Shown here: piece after piece, positions 2,930 to 58,694 of the stretch | Position numbering within the stretch: position 1 is the first letter of the stretch | Layout: each line of letters opens with the position of its first letter | DNA from: Octopus vulgaris | Lineage: Eukaryota | DNA length: 64,000 nucleotides | Assembly (NCBI GenBank): GCA_951406725.2 | Contig: OX597829.1 | Coordinates: forward strand, 52,390,001 to 52,454,000 | Direction of reading: 5' to 3' | Made by a program: the position numbers and the translations under genes | The notes under the pieces: generated by a model | The model's input: the letters and a program-made list of their open reading frames with translations, nothing else | Databases searched by the model: none | What the model was told of the DNA's origin: nothing

Positions 2930-3560
2930 TCATCATCATCATTTAGCATCCGTTTTCCATGCTAGCATGGGTTGGACAGTTCAACTGGGGTCTGTGAAGC
3001 TGGAAGGCTTCATCAGGCCCAGTCAGATCTGGCAGTGTTTCTATGGCTGGATGCCCTTCCTAACGCCAACCACTCCGTGAGTGTAGTGGGTGCTTTTTAC
3101 GTGCCACCCGCACAGGTGCCAGACAGAGCTGGCAAATGGCCACGAACGGATGGTGCTTTTACATGTCACTGGCACGGGGGCCAGGCGAGGCTGGCAAACG
3201 GCCACGAACGGATGGTGCTTTTACATGTCACCGGCACGGGGGCCAGGCGAGGCTGGCAACGGACACGAATGGATGGTGCTTTTACGTGCCACCGACACGG
3301 GGCCAGACAGAGCTGGCAAACGGCCACGAACGGACGGTGCTTTTATGTGTCACCGGCACGGGGGCCAGACGAGGCTGGCAACGGACACGAACGGATGGTG
3401 CTTTTTATGTGCCACCAACACGGGGGCCAGACAGAGCTGGCAAACGGCCACGAAACGGATGGTGCTTTTACGTGTCACCGGCACGGGAGCCAGGCGAGGC
3501 TGGCAACGGACACGAACGGACACGAACGGAAGGTGCTTTTACGTGCCACCGACACGGGGG
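2930..3560 (-). mobile_element. SINE 3' part with (ATG)n tail carrying an expanded GC-rich ~61-bp minisatellite
   Basis: Minus-strand TTGGCGTTAGGAAGGGCATCCAGCC motif and (CAT)n tail. Homologous copies at ~5036-5260, 32695-32910, 48470-48680 and 59712-59850. Confidence 0.75.
3089..3560. repeat. GC-rich minisatellite, ~61-bp unit, ~8 copies, two alternating variants
   Basis: Repeating GGTGCTTTTAC(G/A)TG(C/T)CACCGGCACGGGGGCCAG..CTGGCAA..GG(C/A)CACGAACGGAT. It explains the three overlapping ORFs at 2972-3594. Confidence 0.92.
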
Positions 3561-5542
3561 AATAAAATATCATATAATCAAGACAGGTAATTAATTGTAA
3601 TTAATTGTAAATCTGATAATTAGAGGTGAAATAGTCTGCCTGAATATGACTGACAGACTGTTTGTGGACTGATAGAATTTTGTAATAAAGGTTAAAGATC
3701 ATAACTCTGATAAAATAGCCATCTACATATCATATTTAATGTATGTACACTGTTGATAGGCCAGTTACAACAGGGTTTGTCCGGAGATAACATCTCTTAT
3801 GGACTTAGTGTGTGAAAAACATGATAACTAACACAGCATGGCTGATTAATGCAGCAAGTCAATAAAAGATGTCATCTCAGGAAAAATACCGCAGTTACTG
3901 GCTTATAGACAGCATACTGTGAGAAGCAGTATTTAATTTCATCAACTCGAAAAAGTATATTGTATGATTTTTCCATGTAATTCATAAAGGAAATCAGCAA
4001 TATTTCTATCCTTTATATCTTTTCACACTAAATTTTTCTGAAAAGAAGGCTTCTGTCAGTGAAAGTTGATTATGCATTTGCACATGTATGTGCTGATCTG
4101 GGTAAGAGTTTCTGACGAAGGTTAGCAGTTATCCATGCAAGCAAGTCTCCCTCCACATTTACCCAAGGAAAACGCCACAGACTTGGCACCAATTTTGTCA
4201 TAGACAGTGATGTCAGAACACAAATAATTGAAAACAGATATAGGAACAAGCATGGCTGTGTGGTAAGACGCTGGCTTTTAAACCATGTGATCTTGAGTTC
4301 AGTCTCCCTGTGTCATAGCTTGGAAAAGTGTCTTCTACAATAGTTCCAGGTCAACAAAGCCTTGTGGATATATATCGTAGACAGAAACTAAAAGAAGCCT
4401 ATTATATATATATATATAAAAGTTAAATAATGAGGGTAGAAATTAATATTAATTAATATGAAGTTAAACCAGTGGTCTAGCATACTTAAAAATCTAAAGA
4501 TTAAGAAATAATTTATATATATATATATATATATTTTTTCTCTCTCTTTATTTTCTCTCCCTGTTTCTTTCTGTGTTCCTTTCTGTGGAAGAGTGTAGGC
4601 TCGAAGCATTAAAGACTTTTCCACATTCCGCATGTTAAACTAATACATCTGTTTGTTGTCTACACCACCTGTCTTCGTCTTTTGTCTTTTTTGTGAATTC
4701 TCAATTGTGTATTTCAATAAGTAACAAATAATTCAGCATAAAATATTTGCAAAGATATCATTCCCTGTATTTATTATCTAGGGTAATATAAGTAAATTGA
4801 TAATAACAGAATTAATAATATAGGCGATTGTTGGCCTGAAAAAGCATTAAATAGCTAAAGGATTAAAATTTATAATAAATCAAAGGACATATTGAGCATG
4901 TCTAAGGCTTGAAAACAGTTGATTTCTGTAGTTATTATGAGTGTTATTTTTTTAGTGGTTTAAATAAGAATTTTGACTGTTATTTCCAGCAGGTAGACAT
5001 ACTCAGTATGTCCTTTGATTAATACATATTATATCATCAGCATCATCATCATTATCATTTAACATCTGTTGTTCTTGCTGGCATGGGTTGGACAGTTTGA
5101 CCAGGACTGGCCAGCTGGAAGGCTGCAGCAGACTCCAGTCTGATTTGACATAGTATTCTATGGCTGGATACCTTTCCTAACACCAACTACTCTGAGAGCG
5201 CAAAGGGTATTTTTATGTGCTACCAGCATGGGTGCCATTAGTATAACACCAGTACCGGCCATGACTGATTTTGCTCAGTTTGATGGGTCTTCTCAAGAAT
5301 GACATGATGCCAAAGGTCATGGTCATTGCCTTCATGTGGTGCAACACTTGAAAGAACTCAGCCACTTTGCCACTGTAAAGCTCAACGCTCGAATATTACG
5401 AATCGTCTTGGCCTAACGGCCCTTATTGTCTGTTTTGTTGATTGTTTACTTTGTGTGTCCACTCTGTTAATTTTGTTGTTGTTTGTTCATTTGAAGCCTT
5501 AACTCTCCACAAATTTTATATTTTTAAAATTTCTGGATGCTG

Positions 5543-5620
5543 CTGTCTTATGAAGTTTTCCTATCTTGTCGTTAAAAGCACGAAATAGGGAGTAGTAAAA
5601 CAGTCGACAACTGATGAGTG
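5543..5620 (+). ncRNA. Putative non-circularly permuted (pseudoknotted) hammerhead ribozyme, copy 1
   Basis: TTCCT-ATC (triplet 5563-5565), TTGTCG, linker, CAC-GAAA-TAGGGA ... CGACAA-CTGATGA-GTG. Stems III, I and II all pair. Confidence 0.7.
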
Positions 5621-5712
5621 AGTTATCTTCTTTTGGTGTTTTGTCCTGTACTTATCTGTCGTGTGTGTACGTACTTTTCACTTGTTGATGTCCAATAATT
5701 GTTGCGTATGCT

Positions 5713-6701
5713 TTGGTATTTTGTCCTGTACTTACCTCTTGTGTGTTTACGCATTTTCTCCTGTTAGTAATGTCCTGTACTAATTGCGTATAGTTTGGTA
5801 TTTTGTCCTGTACTTACCTCTTGTGTGTTTACGCATTTTCTCCAGTTAGTAATGTCCTGTACTAATTGCGTATAGTTTTGGTATTTTGTCCTGTACTTAC
5901 CTCTTGTGTGTTTACGCATTTTCTCCTGTTAGTAATGTCCTGTACTAATTGCGTATAGTTTGGTATTTTGTCCTGTACTTACCTCTTGTGTGTTTACGCA
6001 TTTTCTCCTGTTAGTAATGTCCTGTACTAATTGCGTATAGTTTGGTATTTTGTCCTGTACTTACCTCTTGTGTGTTTACGCATTTTCTCCTGTTAGTAAT
6101 GTCCTGTACTAATTGCGTATAGTTTGGTATTTTGTCCTGTACTTACCTCTTGTGTGTTTACGCATTTTCACCTGTTAGTAATGTCCTGTACTAATTGCGT
6201 ATAGTTTGGTATTTTGTCCTGTACTTACCTCTTGTGTGTTTACGCATTTTCTCCTGTTAGTAATGTCCTGTACTAATTGCGTATAGTTTGGTATTTTGTC
6301 CTGTACTTACCTCTTGTGTGTTTACGCATTTTCTCCTGTTAGTAATGTCCTGTACTAATTGCGTATAGTTTGGTATTTTGTCCTGTACTTACCTCTTGTG
6401 TGTTTACGCATTTTCACCTGTTAGTAATGTCCTGTACTAATTGCGTATAGTTTGGTATTTTGTCCTGTACTTACCTCTTGTGTGTTTACGCATTTTCTCC
6501 TGTTAGTAATGTCCTGTACTAATTGCGTATAGTTTGGTATTTTGTCCTGTACTTACCTCTTGTGTGTTTACGCATTTTCTCCTGTTAGTAATGTCCTGTA
6601 CTAATTGCGTATAGTTTGGTATTTTGTCCTGTACTTATCTCTCATGTGTTTGCATATTTTTCACCTGTTAGTGATGTCCTGTACTAATTGCTTATGGTTT
6701 G
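5713..6701. repeat. 82-bp tandem satellite, 12 copies (11 near-identical), continuing diverged at 10935-11150
   Basis: Unit TTGGTATTTTGTCCTGTACTTACCTCTTGTGTGTTTACGCATTTTCTCCTGTTAGTAATGTCCTGTACTAATTGCGTATAGT at 5713, 5795, 5878, 5960 etc. TGTCCTGTACT occurs twice per unit. Confidence 0.95.
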
Positions 6702-6797
6702 TGTTGTGTGGACGCCTGCAGATGATGACGTATGCTAGCCCAATACATAGATATGGAGGGAGAAGTAGTAGAGGCCATCCGAACGTGTGACATAACA
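6702..6797 (+). repeat. 5' LTR (96 bp)
   Basis: TGTTGTGTGG...CATAACA. Aligns to 10822-10934 with ~11 substitutions and one 17-bp indel. Confidence 0.9.
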
Positions 6798-6798
6798 G

Positions 6799-6865
6799 TG
6801 GTGACGAGGACTTTGTAGCTCACACAGCCACTGTGTAGTATTGCGATATAACAGTGGCGACGAGG
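6799..6865 (+). promoter_or_regulatory. Two primer-binding sites complementary to the tRNA-Ser(GCU) 3' end
   Basis: TGGTGACGAGGA at 6799 and TGGCGACGAGG at 6855, each preceded by TAACAG. tRNA-Ser(GCU) ends ...CCUCGUCGCCA. Confidence 0.75.
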
Positions 6866-6882
6866 TTTCGAATAGTACCAAA

Positions 6883-7700
6883 ATGGAAGAGTTACAGAAA
6901 GCAGTTGTAAAACAACAGGAGCAGCAGCTACAGAAGTTAACAGAGTTGTTACTGCAGCCGAGCAATACGACAGAATCATTTTCAGCAGATGGCGTTGCAA
7001 ATTCCATCGAAGATTTTCACTACAATCCGGATGAAGGAACTACTTTTGCTGCATATTAGGAAGACGATACGAAGACATATTCCGAGGGGAATGCAAGGGA
7101 TGGCCTAGTGAAAGGAAGGTAAAGCTCCTTTTGCGAATGCTTGCTACTCCGGAACACGAAAGTTTTTGTAACTTTATTTTGCCGAGAAAACCCGCGGAAT
7201 TGTGTTTTGATGAAATGATAAATATTTTGACTAATATTTTTAGCGAGAAAAGTCTGCAGTTTAACATTTGGTGAGAATGTTTAAATTTAAAGAAAAACGA
7301 GTCCGATGATTTTGTAACATATGCCGGTATGGTTAATAAGGCTTGCGAAAGGTTTAAGCAGGAAGAATTAATGCCAGATATGTTCAAGTGCCCAATATTC
7401 GTTAAAGGGCTAATGGCAACGGAAGACGCGGAAATTAGAAAAAGAATATTATCAAAGTTGAATCAAGATGTGAAACTCACTTTGCAGAAAATGGCTGAGG
7501 AATGCCAACAAATAATAAACCTTCGAGATGATACAAGAAAGATAGAAGACAAGAAAAATAATGTACAAATGTGTAAAGAAAGTACAGAAAGAAGGAAAAA
7601 TTTTAATTCAAAACGGTGCTATGGTTGCGGAGATCGGCATTTGAGGAAAGATTGCCCCTTTAAAGATAAAAGTGTGATAAAATTGGACATATACAGATAA
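6883..7700 (+). pseudogene. gag: gag of the gypsy element (stops and frameshifts)
   Basis: MEELQKAVVKQQEQQ...IEDFHYNPDEGTTFAAY, then a zinc knuckle CYGCGDRHLRKDC. Confidence 0.85.
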
Positions 7701-7799
7701 AATGCCGGTCAAAGAAAATGGTAAAATAGAAGGAAGTCTACTCAACAAAAGTAAATTATACCAGACAAAACCGAAAATTTGTATTGGTAGAAATAAATG

Positions 7800-10777
7800 G
7801 GTTTCAGACCAAAATGCAATTAGATACCAGTTCAGACGCATCGATAATAAATATGGCAACAGAGTAAGATAGGCAGGCCATTGTATAAAAAAAACCCTAC
7901 TAGAATAGCCTACGGTGTGTCAGGGGAACGAGTTCAATTCTTGGGCGAAATTTCACCAGAAATAAAACTTAAATACAGGACGCGGAAATGTAAACTAATG
8001 GTATCTAAGAATACAATGATTTAATGGAAGGATTTGACCTGTGGGATCTATCACTGAATACATTATGTAACAAGGTGAATGCGTTACAGTCCGTGTCAGA
8101 GAAAGCATCGGAAAAAATGAAATTAAAATTGAAAAAGATGTACCCTGATATTTTTTGGAAAGAGCTCGGTATGTGTAAAAAAATTAAAGTAAAGTTTGAG
8201 TTGAAAGAAGATGCGGTGCCGGTGTTCAAACCGAAAAGGAATGTACCTTTCACGACGTTAAATCAAGTTGAGAAGGAATTAAAAAGATTGGAAGACATGG
8301 AAGTAATTGAAAAAGTAGGTTACTCTGAGTGGGCAACTCCTACGATATATATGAAAAAAGAACAACGAGGTAAGAGTATGTGTGGACTTCTCAGCTGGTC
8401 TTAATGATTGTTTAAAAAATTTCAATTATCCGCTTCCAAACCCAGAAGAAATATTTGCTAAATGCAATGGTGGGAAAATTTTTCCAAGCTGAATTTGTCA
8501 GAGACCTACCTCCAATTACTGGTAGATGAAGAATGTGCTAAAGTATAAACAATCAATACTCATAAAGGTCTGTACCGTTTCAAAAGACTACCAGCTGGGG
8601 GTAAAGGGCGCACCAGCAATATTTCAGCAAGTAATGGATACTATGCTAGCAGATTGTGAGTTCGCGGTCCCATACTTGGATGACATATTGATCAAAAGTG
8701 AATCAAGGGATCAACATATCGAACATATAGAAGAGGTTTTCAAACGAATATGTGATTACGGGTTTAAAGTAAGGGAGGATAAATGTGAATTTTTCTTGAC
8801 AAAAATAAAGTACTTAGGACAGGTGATCGATGAAAACGGACGAAAACCGGAACCTTCTAGGATCGACGCCATAAAAAATATAAATGCCTGCTCCCACTAA
8901 CAAAACAAAACTATCAGCATTTTTAGGTTTGGTAAGTTATTACCAGTTGTACATACCTAAAATGTATGAGCTAAGAGTTCCGTTGAATAAGTTGCTAAAG
9001 AAGGACTCGAAATGGAGCTGGACAAACGAGTGCCAGAAATCATTCGAGGAATTAAAAAAGCGGTTAACATCAGAGTTATTAACTCATTTCGACCCAAATC
9101 TGAAAATAATTGTGGCATCGGATGCCAGTGAATATGGAATAGGAGCTGTGATATTGCATAAATTTAATGATGGTAAAATCAAAGCTATTGCACATGCATC
9201 GAGAGTTCTATTACCAGCAGAAAGAAACTACAGCCAGATTGAAAAAGAGGCGTTATCATTATTCTTCGCAGTAAAAAAATTCCATAAATTCTTACATGGG
9301 AGGAAGTTTACACTGCAAACGGATCACCGAATGTTATTGTCTATTTTTGATTCGAAAAAGGGTATCCCAACGCACTCAGCAAACTGCTTACAGCGCTGGG
9401 GGACTACCCTGTTGAACTACGATTCCCAGATGGAGTTTTTGCCATCAATGAAAATGGGACACGCAGACGGGTTGTCTAGGCTAATTCCAAAATATAAGAA
9501 ACCTTTTGAAGACACGGTGATTGCATCGTTAAAACTAGAAATGGAACTGAAGAACATTTTGTGCAATGTAGTACGTGATTTGCCGGTAACGCTGGAAGAA
9601 ATTAAATTGAAATCGGGAAACGATAGGTTCATAAACAAGATTTTAAAAATGTTGAGTAACACGAAAAATATAAATGAGCAGAACGCAGGTTCAAAGCACT
9701 ACTCAGTATGTGATGAGGTGTTATTATATGCACAAAGAGTGGTGATACCTGAAGCACTACAAAACAGAGTATTAAAGGACTTTCATGTAGGACATGCGGG
9801 GATTGTCCGGATGAAGAGCTTCATGAGGAGTTATGTTTATTGGCCGAATATGGACTAAATTGAGAGACTAAATTGACGCCCACAGTGCAGATTCAGCCGT
9901 GGCCAAAAACGGATTCGGCATGGTCTAGACTACATGTGGATTTCGCAGGACCATTAAATGGCTCTCATTATAACATTGTGGTGGATAGCTATTCCGAATG
10001 GCCTGAAGTGTGTAAATGTTTAAGAACAACCACAAGTGTGACTATTGACTTCTTGGAAGAACTGTTCGCTCGTTATGGAGTGCAAGATACGATCGTGTCG
10101 GATAATGGTACACAATTCACGGCGAAGGAGTTCGAAAGATTCTGTAAGTCGGTTCAGATGAATCATGTGTTAACTCCGCCATACCATCCAAGGTCAAATG
10201 GGTTAGCGGAAAGATTGGTCGACACATTCAAGAGAGCTTTAAGGAAGACCAGACGGGAAACCCTTGAAGATACAAATATGACAAAGTTTTTGCAGGTGTA
10301 TAGAATAACACCGAACCCAAATGCAGAGTCGGGTAGGTTACCCGCAGATTTGATGTTTTCCAGAAAACTTCGCTCTATTTTTGACAAATGGTTGCCGAGC
10401 AGGAAACAAAAAATACGGGAAGAAAAACGAAATTTTTTGACATAGGTGACAAAGTGTATTTTAAAATATATAGTAACGGAAAACAGGACTGGGAACAAGG
10501 AAGTATAACTGGACGTCTGGGTAATGTGATGTACACGGTAAAAGGACCAAAATATGAGCACAGAAGGCATTTAAACCAATTAAAAAAAAAAGATATACCA
10601 AAAAGCAAGAGAGGCGAGAAGACCCAATGGATATATGGTATGATTTGTTCGAGGTCCCAGAACCACAAGCAAATGCAGAACCGATACGTAGGTCGAACAG
10701 GAAGAGCAAAACCTGCAGAAATGATGGAAATTAACGCTAAGAGAAAAAGATATGCCAGTTTCTCACCGAGGAAATAA
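7800..10777 (+). pseudogene. pol: pol of the gypsy element (protease, RT, RNase H, integrase), frameshifted
   Basis: LDTSSD protease-like motif (~7819); RT GVKGAPAIFQ and PYLDDILI; RNase H ASDASEYGIG and RNYSQIEKEAL; integrase HVGHAG, HVDFAGP, VSDNGTQF, HPRSNGLAER. Confidence 0.95.
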
Positions 10778-10821
10778 AATTGATAAATTCGGGTTTAAAA
10801 AAAAAACTCAAAAGGGGGAGG

Positions 10822-10934
10822 TGTTGTGTGGACGACCCCAGACGATGAAGTAGACTAGCCCAATACGTAGATATAGAGGGAGAAGTCTAGACGTCAGGAG
10901 TTGAGTAGAGGTCATCCGAACGTGCGACATAACA
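10822..10934 (+). repeat. 3' LTR (113 bp)
   Basis: Follows the PPT. TGTTGTGTGG...CATAACA, then TSD GTTTG. Confidence 0.9.
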
Positions 10935-11246
10935 GTTTGGTATTTTGTCCTGTACTTATCTGTCGTGTGTTCATGTATTTTTCACCTGTTAGTGATGTCC
11001 TGTACTAATTGCGTATGGTTTGGTATTTTGTCCTGTACTTATCTCTCATGTGTTTGCATTATTTCACCTGTTAATGATTTCCTGTACTAATTGCGTATGG
11101 TTTCGTATTTTCTCCTGTACTTATCTCTCGTGTGTTTACGTATTTTTTGTATTTACTTTGTATGTCCACGCTGTTTTTGTTGTTATTTGTTCATTTGAAG
11201 ACCTAACTCTCCACAAATTTTATACTTTTAAAATTTCTGGATGCTG

Positions 11247-11324
11247 CTGTCTTATGAAGTTTTCCTATCTTGTCGTTAAAAGCACGAAATAGGGAGTAGT
11301 AAAACAGTCGACAACTGATGAGTG
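11247..11324 (+). ncRNA. Putative non-circularly permuted hammerhead ribozyme, copy 2 (identical to copy 1)
   Basis: ATC 11267-11269, GAAA 11286-11289, CTGATGA 11315-11321, same stems as 5543-5620. Confidence 0.7.
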
Positions 11325-11517
11325 AGTTATCTTCTTTTGGTGTTTTGTCCTGTACACATCTCTCGTGTGTGTACGTACTTTTCACTTGTTGATGTCTTGT
11401 ACGTAATGTGTATTTATTTATTTATAATCGAACACTACGCAGCCTTTCCATAGTATGTTCTTAAATTTATATACAATTTTTTCCACTCCACACTCTGTTT
11501 TCTTTCTGTCTCTCCAT

Positions 11518-11907
11518 GGATGGAAGCACTCCGTCGGTTACGACGACGAGGGTTCCGGTTGATCCGAATCAACGGAACAGCCTGCTCGTGAAATTAACGT
11601 GAAATTAACGGCTGAGCACTCCACAGACACGTGTACTCTTAACGTAGTTCTCGGATATTCAGCGTGACACAGAGAGTGACAAGGCCGGCCCCTTGAAATA
11701 CAGGTACAACAGAAACAGGAAGTAAGAGTGAGAGAAAGTTGTGGTGAAAGAGTACAGCAGGGATCACCACCATCCCCTGCCGGAGCCTCGTGGAGCTTTT
11801 AGGTGTTTTCGCTCAATAAACACTCACAACGTCCGGTCTGGGAATCGAAACCGCGATCCTATGACCGCGAGTCCGCTGCCCTAACCACTGGGCCATTGCG
11901 CCTCCAC
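11518..11907 (-). mobile_element. Full-length tRNA(Arg-like)-derived SINE
   Basis: Minus head GGAGGCGCAATGGCCCAGTGGTTAGGGCAGCGGACTCGCGGTC..GGTTTCGATTCCC (A and B boxes). 12-bp TSD CTGTCTCTCCAT at 11506-11517 and 11908-11919. A related head fragment lies at ~19963-20052. Confidence 0.9.
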
Positions 11908-11929
11908 CTGTCTCTCCATACCTCTATAA

Positions 11930-18844: not shown

Positions 18845-19261
18845 GGCGGGCGAACTGGCAGAAACGTTAGCATGCCGGGCGAAATGCTTAGCAGTATTTC
18901 GTCTGCCACTACGTTCTGAGTTCAAATTCCGCCGAAGTCGACTTTGCCTTTCATCCTTTCGGGGTCGATTAAATAAGTACCAGTTACGCACAGGGGTAGA
19001 TATAATCGACATGATCCGTTTGTCTGTCCTTGTTTGTCCCCTCTGTGTTTAGCCCCTTGTGGGTGGGTAAAGAAATAGGTATGTCGTCTGCCGTTACATT
19101 CTGAGATCAAATTCCGCCGAAGTCGACTTTGCCTTTCATCCTTTCGGGATCGATAAATTAAGTACCAGTTACGCACTGGGGTCGATGTAATCGACTTAAT
19201 CCCTTTGTCTGTCCTTGTTTGTCCCCTCTATGTTTAGCCCCTTGTGGGTAGTAAAGAAATA
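18845..19261 (+). mobile_element. Dimeric SINE-B inserted in the head of a SINE-A
   Basis: Two units, the second lacking the A-box head. 17-bp TSD AGAAGATTGTTTCCTAA at 18828-18844 and 19262-19278. Confidence 0.9.
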
Positions 19262-20314: not shown

Positions 20315-20928
20315 TTACGATGCGCACTCTTCTATCTTTACTATCTCTTCTCTGTCTATCTCTCTTCCCCTCTTGTTCTTCATACTTTCTGGTTTTCTCT
20401 CCCACCCTTCCCTATTCTTCTCCTCTCCTCTTCACCGTTTCCCCTCTCTCACTCCTCCTCCTCGACTCTCTCGTCGCTGACACGTGACGAAAGAGAATCT
20501 ACCTTTCTACCCACAAGCTTCGTAAAGACTATACGTGCTTATACTGTCTCTTTCGCAAGCTTGTCTTCCTAAGCGTTCAATAATGATTTTTCTATTGTCT
20601 TGACTTAACAACCATCACCGTTTGTTTTTACTGCTTTGTTCTCATTGTCCTGTTCTTGTTACCACTTTCACCCCCCGCTAAAAATCCCAAATTTGATTTA
20701 ATTTGCTTTGCGGGAAGGATTGTTTCAATGAAGTCGCGTCTTGTCTTTGCCTTTGAAACGTGGAGTAGATGAAACAGGGACAACTGAAGAAGGGGAATAT
20801 TCTTTATGTTGTATGTCTCGTTTCTCTATTTGTTTTTTTCGTTGTTCGAAAAAAAGTTCGTTTCTATGTTTTTGTTTTTATGTTTTCGTTTCTCATTGTG
20901 TTCAACGTATTTTTGATGTCCTGTACTC
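20315..20928 (+). mobile_element. Divergent relative of the 5.4/11.2-kb repeat, inserted in (TA)n
   Basis: Pyrimidine-rich body, the same permuted HHR layout, and a shared TTGATGTC(C/T)TGTAC 3' end. Confidence 0.6.
20721..20795 (+). ncRNA. Putative non-circularly permuted hammerhead ribozyme, divergent copy 3
   Basis: TCGC-GTC (20738-20740), TTGTCTT, CCTTT-GAAA-CGTGG ... GGGACAA-CTGAAGA-AGGGG. Stems covary with copies 1 and 2. Confidence 0.65.
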
Positions 20929-20944
20929 ATATATGCATGTATAT

Positions 20945-20997
<53 letters not shown>

Positions 20998-21007
<10 letters not shown>

Positions 21008-21338
21008 CATATATATGTATGTATGTATGCATATATATGTATGTATGTATGCATATATATGTATGTATGTATGCATATATATGTATGTATGTATGCATAT
21101 ATATGTATGTATGTATGCATATATATGTATGTATGTATGCATATATATGTATGTATGTATGCATATATATGTATGTATGAATGCATATATATGTATGTAT
21201 GAATGCACATATATGTATGTATGTATGCACATATATGTATGTATGCACATATATGTATGTATGTATGCATATATATGTATGTATGCATGCATATATATGT
21301 ATGTATGTATGCACATATATGTATGTATGTATGCATAT
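20998..21338. repeat. 22-bp higher-order microsatellite
   Basis: (ATGCATATATATGTATGTATGT)n, ~15 copies. Source of the MHIYVC-type ORFs. Confidence 0.9.
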
Positions 21339-21426
21339 ATTTATATATTATTTATATTATTATATGATCGGACGCCACGCATCCTTTTCCAAGTAAGTTT
21401 TATCTATGTATGTATGTATGTGTGTG

Positions 21427-58160: not shown

Positions 58161-58694
58161 ATGCCTAGGGTTAAACTCAACTCCCCTTGTCAGCTTATGA
58201 GATTTCCATTGAAATCATACACTGATTTCATAAATGGTAAACGAATAAAATTATAAACAATATGGGTGGCTAATTCGCAATTTTACAACCTAAAGGCAGG
58301 AATATATACATTCCTAAAGTAAAAAAGGGCACTACTCAGCACCTGTATTGCTAGAAATAAGAGTCAAAACAACTGAACAACCACAGAAACACTATCTTAA
58401 TGACTGACAAGAGAGGAAGCTCCCTACAGTCGCAGATGTAGCCAGATCATTGATGATTTCGCATTTTGATGCTTAACACATCTTAATGCTCATCAGTGGC
58501 TCTCACCATGCCTAGGGTTAAACCCAGCTTGCCTTATCAGCTTATATGATTTCTGTTGAAATCATACACTGGATTTCATAAACAGTAAAAGTGAAAATTA
58601 TACATAATATGGGCGACTAATTCACAGTTTTACAACCTAGTGATGTACATATTTCTGACTTTAGGTTATAAAATTGCAAATTAGCCAGCTATAA
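58161..58694 (-). mobile_element. Retrozyme/Penelope-like element: 347-bp monomer present as a ~1.4-mer plus an inverted fragment
   Basis: Direct repeat 58161-58292 / 58508-58639. 58643-58694 is inverted relative to 58260-58311. One HHR per monomer. Confidence 0.7.
58440..58501 (-). ncRNA. Type I hammerhead ribozyme
   Basis: Minus strand: AGCCA-CTGATGA-GCATTAAGATG..CATCAAAATGC-GAAA-TCATCAATGA-TC-TGGCT. Intact core, AUC site. Confidence 0.9.

Follow-up and report, generated by a model that had tools for sequence, protein, structure and literature searches.

What kind of element places two copies of a ribozyme on either side of a satellite array and a gypsy-type retrotransposon? The question arises from contig OX597829.1 of the Octopus vulgaris assembly GCA_951406725.2, of which we analyzed 64,000 nucleotides (positions 52,390,001 to 52,454,000 of the forward strand; hereafter the window, with coordinates counted from its first letter). 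An initial annotation had described the locus as retrozyme-like, that is, as a non-coding retroelement with ribozyme-bearing direct repeats and a shared target-site duplication (TSD) that self-cleaves to a unit-length RNA and borrows a reverse transcriptase (RT). Our overall reading, to which we assign a probability of roughly 0.6, is that the locus is a partial tandem copy of a protein-free repeat family that carries a predicted hammerhead ribozyme of type SGC, would release unit-length RNA and is likely copied by a Naiad-type Penelope-like RT.

The two direct repeats (5445-5692 and 11152-11396) were present as annotated, flanking the satellite and the gypsy element, and were 95.2% identical over 248 alignment columns (236 of 245 aligned letters). 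Their longest identical stretch, 130 nt at 5522-5651, spans the entire ribozyme, which confirms that the ribozyme segment is the same in both. In each repeat the cleavage site (S), GAAA (G) and CUGAUGA (C) follow one another in this order, in the left repeat at 5557-5571, 5579-5592 and 5605-5620, with predicted cuts after C5565 (left) and C11269 (right). This is the block order of type SGC, in which the stems cross to form a pseudoknot. Stems I, II and III comprise 6, 3 and 8 bp in both repeats when stem II is counted with its downstream strand, the core bases and the G10.1-C11.1 pair are all intact in both, and CUGANGA, GAAA and UH stand at the three-stem junction in family copies. An order-free core scan returned three SGC matches in the window and none in 60 resampled windows, and an anchored pattern gave three matches in the window and none in 100 shuffles. 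The SGC descriptor, which we re-implemented from Eckert et al. 2023 (PMC10085705), matched both repeats at the cuts given above, and these were its only two matches in the window. Judged by its block order, the hammerhead is not of type I, II or III but of type SGC, which is the main point that the initial annotation overlooked. It is highly likely that a hammerhead fold is conserved here, and the predicted ribozyme is probably active in cutting.

Standard searches were silent on this structure. Rfam gave no match at the gathering score and no hammerhead at E values up to 10, the circular order of types I to III was not found (the order being S-G-C), and plain folding, which cannot represent pseudoknots, gave an unremarkable stability (z 0.45). 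A type II or type III hammerhead within one copy was ruled out, as either stem I or a downstream GAAA is missing. A profile built from the three copies in the window detected no further cassette there. Outside the window, 16 pattern matches in viral contigs and 87 in metagenome contigs included none that form the stems (0/16, best total 8, and 0/87, best total 10, versus 17-20 here), and a third collection yielded no pattern match; these failed matches are a useful null, with no sign of relatives in those collections. Elsewhere in the window, the order-free scan picked up a candidate for a canonical type I (CGS-order) hammerhead on the minus strand at 58440-58501, with stems of 5/5/5 bp and no Rfam match at the gathering score.

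The cassettes contain a further helix. The stretch between stems III and I meets DNA upstream of block S in an outer helix, P (5542-5550 with 5596-5604), in which 8 of 9 positions pair. Its pairs have probabilities of 0.75-0.90 in the left copy, against 0.43-0.47 in the third copy described below, and the helix contributes 4-8 kcal/mol. UGAAGU and GAGUAG are retained in the internal loop that separates P from stem III, and we take them to resemble a loop E motif. Next to P lies a candidate upstream strand for stem II, which by duplex energy was equal to or better than the downstream strand (-3.1 versus -1.5 kcal/mol in the left copy). At the foot of P, the linkers measure 0-1 nt. The extra helix that published SGC hammerheads form with the 3' extension after stem II was not found in the cassettes; the linker pairs with a strand upstream of block S instead. 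Because P and the upstream strand were chosen by eye, a shuffle test of them is circular and was not counted.

A third member of the family, solitary and diverged, lies within the window, and its local alignment score of 123 compares with a shuffle maximum of 94.5. It comprises a head and an SGC hammerhead (20714-20795) with a predicted cut after C20740, an outer helix (20720-20727 with 20770-20777) and an upstream stem II strand (20714-20718), and it ends in a long TA-rich microsatellite (20929-21365). Its stems I, II and III measure 9, 5 and 6 bp, five downstream stem II pairs are possible, and CUGANGA, GAAA and UC survive despite the divergence. Between the left and third copies, two-sided changes that keep pairing were found in stem III (3 of 6 pairs) and stem I (1 of 6), both stems being anchored on the core rather than chosen, and in helix P (6 of 8), in a comparison of only two independent sequence types. 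The features are collected in Table 1.

Table 1. Features of the repeat family and its surroundings in the window
Feature	Position	Strand	Basis or remark
Putative 12-bp TSD, left copy	5389..5400	+	2 mismatches versus right copy
5' head common to family members	5401..5444	+	family contigs; head homologue at 20594-20628
Direct repeat 1 (ribozyme cassette and first diverged 82-bp unit)	5445..5692	+	repeat alignment
Candidate upstream stem II strand	5536..5541	+	4 bp with 5577-5581 plus G5536-C5581 across a bulged A
Outer helix P and internal loop between P and stem III	5542..5604	+	pair probabilities, covariation
Hammerhead core, SGC order	5557..5620	+	order-free scan, stem analysis
13 units of 82 bp	5632..6696	+	tandem-repeat analysis
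Broken Ty3/gypsy-type LTR element, later insertion	6702..10934	+	LTRs, 5-bp duplication, Pfam domains
2.5 further, more diverged 82-bp units	10936..11147	+	tandem-repeat analysis
Direct repeat 2, holding hammerhead 11261-11324 with predicted cut after C11269	11152..11396	+	alignment and core scan
3' end, short TATT-type tail	11397..11427	+	sequence; similar tail in family loose ends at 5687
Putative 12-bp TSD, right copy	11428..11439	+	2 mismatches versus left copy
Third family member, solitary, diverged	20594..20935	+	order-free scan, local alignment
LTR, long terminal repeat.

Similar wiring was apparent in Naiads, which Craig et al. 2021 (PMC8557442) describe as elements without canonical hammerheads, some of them labelled "core" or "half core". 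In passages of the supplement to that paper around a few search words, read by eye and not as a systematic or controlled screen, reversed-order hammerheads were seen in 18 of 54 Naiad consensus tails. Ten of these have the SGC order, their stem II strand and helix P lying upstream, namely, Naiad_Obim, Ovul, Esco, Plae and 2_Movir (assigned by adjacent names) together with three coral, one hydrozoan and one ctenophore tail (assigned by file order); the other eight, all from nematodes, are in clean CSG order (three could be assigned from adjacent names and the other five from file order). The bases that follow CUGANGA in these passages are mostly unable to pair, and the upstream strand pairs. 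What separates stem III from P in the tails from corals and Plae is a bulge of 3-7 nt confined to one strand; by a rough estimate of helix lengths, the foot of P therefore cannot reach the core of the same molecule. The words in a different tail, that of Naiad-1_Movir, resemble those of a twister ribozyme. This tail, which stands before Naiad-2_Movir in the supplement of PMC8557442, contains no hammerhead words in the passage seen. Like the Naiads, the octopus family shows reversed wiring and partial tandems, and the (TA)n bias of Naiads may be compared with the TA-rich end of the third copy; unlike them, its unit is without an RT or endonuclease. We lean slightly toward a Naiad-type partner for the mobilization of the family.

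The Naiad tails also bear on how a single cassette might work. It could act as a one-copy SGC ribozyme as published, with stem II formed by the 3 bases after CUGAUGA and P either opening into the linker or acting as an off switch. Both repeats do fit the descriptor with the downstream strand, the third copy has its five possible downstream pairs, solitary copies exist, and published SGC RNAs cut during transcription (PMC10085705). This account must nevertheless set aside helix P, with the probabilities and energy given above and its pairing kept through two-sided changes, as well as the mostly unpairable bases past CUGANGA and the pairing upstream strand of the Naiads, and we consider it unlikely. 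A more tentative proposal, to which we give less than even weight, is that many Naiads and this family share a hidden ribozyme, a reverse-wired hammerhead with its chain open between A9 and G10.1, and that it serves as a two-copy sensor, by which tandems would be cut and solitary copies and circles spared.

The family extends well beyond the window. Twenty sequencing runs from 13 studies matched the stretch or part of it, four of them with at least half of its words, and four runs were examined as contigs. Three DNA-like runs (organism labels A, E and F) contained 1,239, 572 and 1,276 family contigs, respectively, mostly less than 95% alike; one DNA-like run, X1, may be the window's own sample. 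This is an abundant, dispersed, protein-free repeat family; contig depths were not taken as a measure of its copy number. Stem III partners vary in the three DNA-like runs, with A to G at 5563 in 66, 32 and 72 contigs and T to C at 5586 in 54, 24 and 51, counted per site; both variants are the letters of the third copy, and each of the two positions varies often, as would be expected of a compensatory pair. Contig loose ends placed head and tail around a single cassette, so solitary copies of ~0.3 kb are probably common. Solitary copies, which the initial annotation had counted against its reading, therefore do occur, both in these contigs and as the third copy, and that objection holds by half; pairing may not be the usual form of the family.

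The boundaries of the element were less certain than its core. The annotated 12-bp TSD with 2 mismatches is present at 5389-5400 and 11428-11439, yet a match of this grade arose in 78 of 400 random flank pairs when the boundaries were free; with the left end fixed to 4 positions and the right end to 26, the chance rate was 179 of 20,000. Taken alone, the TSD is weak. The left boundary was fixed independently of it, because family contigs start at 5403-5406 and the head of the third copy aligns from 5402 (24 of 35 identical; none of 500 shuffles as good). The left flank (5354-5393) closes with one unit of a repeat that is common in the host, marked by many contig loose ends at 5390-5393, and the first five TSD letters overlap the end of that repeat. 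No empty insertion site was seen among the contig loose ends listed, those at 5390-5393 reflecting the host repeat. The head contains an 11-mer at 5409-5419, a pattern found twice in the window, which is A-box-like by the RNA polymerase III (Pol III) consensus. By the same consensus, the copies in the window have no B box, and the head is broken up by runs of T; a B-like box appeared only when two common contig variants, at 5489 and 5492 and counted per site, were joined. A tRNA search found none, and no coding frame of at least 100 aa lies wholly outside the gypsy element. We consider it very likely that the family has spread by retrotransposition. Directly to the right of the element lies a separate short repeat insertion (11520-11907), apparently bounded by a 12-bp duplication (11508-11519 and 11908-11919, by eye).

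The interior of the locus gave some indication of its history. Eleven recent 82-bp units at 5712-6614 are 98-100% alike where compared. The gypsy element is flanked on both sides by the 5-bp duplication GTTTG (6697-6701 and 10935-10939), and its LTRs (6702-6797 and 10822-10934) are identical at 84 of 95 positions, apart from an 18-nt gap. RT, RNase H and integrase domains lie in separate gypsy frames (three of the five scanned frames carry one), so we regard the element as a broken, later guest. Pfam found only gypsy-type domains in these five frames and no frame combining GIY-YIG and RT, and the best protein matches of a gypsy frame were 57-63% identical. A primer-site-like word occurs twice after the 5' LTR (6798-6870), ~60 bp apart and each time behind an LTR-end-like heptamer. 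Without the gypsy element, the predicted cuts are 1,466 nt apart, in agreement with the ~1.47 kb of the initial annotation. Its further figure of ~0.65 kb follows arithmetically when ten recent units are removed (~646 nt), but there are eleven, which brings the distance to ~563 nt. Three other tandem arrays lie in the window, at 378-1076 (period 235 bp), 3089-3520 (62 bp) and 18894-19261 (185 bp).

It is conceivable that the two repeats form a type III hammerhead together, from S and C of copy 1 and G of copy 2, or that the gypsy element supplies a primer-binding site (PBS), polypurine tract (PPT) and RT as in plant LTR retrozymes. The core is identical in both repeats, and cross-pairing is formally possible. 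Against the first variant, the reversed order and its short, conserved linkers persist in the solitary copy and at single Naiad ends; against the second, the gypsy element is broken and sits inside the array with a 5-bp duplication of its own. We regard either as very improbable.

How the pair itself arose is a separate matter. The cassettes (236/245) are closer to each other than the intervening gypsy LTRs (84/95), which indicates exchange or selection after insertion, whatever the origin. A single SINE-like (short interspersed element-like) insertion of head, cassette, tail and TSD might have been duplicated locally by unequal exchange among the T-rich 82-bp units. The solitary third copy, the single cassettes between head and tail in family contigs and the recent expansion of the array accord with this, and the similarity of the cassettes relative to the LTRs would reflect local exchange. 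Homogenization fits either origin, however, and partial tandems are a normal product of Penelope-like elements (PLEs) (PMC8557442). Furthermore, record 25 of run X2, guessed to be RNA, has right-copy letters upstream, with a 27-letter insert identical to 11148-11174 and C at 5521, and then continues to 5720 with 6 differences and no gap, a region in which the right copy differs at 18 places. This unit-to-cassette junction, with right-copy sequence before the cut and left-copy sequence after it, does not occur in the window. In our view it is rather doubtful that local duplication fully accounts for the pair, which may have come in as one insertion or have arisen by duplication on the spot. One contig from label E runs across the left junction (19 differences, 7 gaps), a sign of either an insertion that is old and shared or a site used more than once. 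The X2 junction is as would be expected of a unit-length circle or of an inner unit of a longer array, and we rate circles from this family as possible, at somewhat less than even odds.

Returning to a partial tandem that a Naiad-type RT likely copied, we envisage the following sequence of events, of which every step after folding is inferred. A transcript, perhaps started in the head, would fold S and G of each cassette into a long hairpin composed of stem III, the internal loop and P, with CUGAUGA and the strands that complete stems I and II leaving its far foot. As the linkers there are only 0-1 nt, these strands would likely reach the head loop of the neighboring copy rather than their own, and the head of one cassette would be completed by the foot of the other, which provides CUGAUGA along with stems I and II. 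The predicted cuts after 5565 and 11269 would then release a unit-length RNA, possibly ligated or circularized. Because cutting would require two cassettes per transcript, a single-cassette circle would be spared. By copying more than one unit, a Penelope-like RT could generate a partial tandem that has a tail and a TSD. For the type I hammerheads of PLEs and newts, cleavage that needs two copies is established, and the PLE copying route has been proposed or shown for type I hammerheads (PMC4209133, PMC6765202, PMC7229834). For the present family, we put two-copy activation of cutting only just short of an even chance.

Several observations weigh against this reading. Self-cleavage is a prediction, and stem II is weak in the window copies with either strand (-1.5 to -3.1 kcal/mol). 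Helix P and upstream stem II were picked by eye, and in the left copy the latter forms only with a bulge. The geometry is a rough helix-length estimate, in which the large internal loop could let one window copy fold back. The third copy lacks C11.1 and does not fit the literal core of the SGC descriptor; the covariation spans two sequence types, and the counts at 5563 and 5586 were taken site by site. The TSD has two mismatches and no observed empty site. That run X2 is RNA is a guess, and a genomic array of at least three cassettes would give rise to its junction as well; the missing coverage of the head (5405-5464) in this run did not enter the argument. The link to Naiads is one of architecture by eye and not of alignment, the family unit has no RT or GIY-YIG frame, the reversed motif was not seen in the bivalve or arthropod Naiad passages covered, and cephalopod Naiads are long inactive according to Craig et al. 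2021 (PMC8557442). The fold might even be a retained RT recognition signal or a relic in copies that no longer cut, for which the weak stem II and the eight of nine frog retrozyme dimers left uncut in vitro (bioRxiv 2026.07.22.740005) could be adduced. The intact core bases and G10.1-C11.1 pair of both repeats, and the survival of CUGANGA, GAAA and UC in the third copy, make this improbable.

Set beside published systems, the family resembles several and coincides with none. Eckert et al. 2023 (PMC10085705) named type SGC and showed its cleavage, and in that paper SGC is reported only from metatranscriptomes, with none in genomes of known organisms save one weak GCS case. The family shares with the SGC and CSG hammerheads described there the block order, the core bases, a short link between stems I and II, and an extra helix where these two stems have their far ends. 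In those hammerheads, CUGAUGA is followed by the extra helix and the stem II strand. In the octopus cassettes the partner of the helix, and probably the stem II strand too, is found upstream; the chain would therefore be open between A9 and G10.1, a wiring not among the six orders considered. With animal non-LTR retrozymes (PMC7229834; bioRxiv 2026.07.22.740005), the family shares non-coding, low-GC sequence, one hammerhead per unit, the occurrence of monomers and dimers (the window has a solitary copy and a pair) and a TSD of more than 4 bp (12 bp and weak in this case), and dependence on PLEs has been proposed for those elements. They have a type I hammerhead and units of 150-450 bp, in contrast to the SGC hammerhead, internal 82-bp array and 0.56- to 1.47-kb unit found here. 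The type III hammerhead and 4-bp TSD of plant LTR retrozymes, which also have a PBS and PPT, were not found. Schistosome SINE-like hammerhead retroposons (PMC6765202) are likewise short repeats with a possible Pol III head before the hammerhead, whose tandems let an upstream copy launch the next; their hammerhead is canonical, and the octopus head is broken by T runs and accompanied by no B box in the window copies.

Because its ribozyme is non-circularly permuted, the element belongs neither with the plant LTR retrozymes nor with the animal retrozymes published so far: it would work like a retrozyme but is not a member as defined. What stands of the retrozyme-like reading is a non-coding, dispersed, ribozyme-bearing repeat with a tail, a likely TSD, a gypsy element that came later and one contig with a circle-type junction. 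In the open-access literature searched, with preprints covered by their main text, no SGC or CSG hammerhead was reported in animals or Naiads; bioRxiv 2026.07.22.740005 on animal retrozymes describes a search for type I only, and a 2026 paper merely cites hammerhead permutations.

If our reading is correct, non-circularly permuted hammerheads would move from anonymous environmental RNA to animal chromosomes, where they would be present in high copy and missed by every standard descriptor. The wiring would lie beyond the six published orders and may answer the puzzle, raised by Eckert et al., of distant helix ends joined without a linker. It would also revise the view that Naiads spread without canonical hammerheads, as many of them seem to carry a rewired one.

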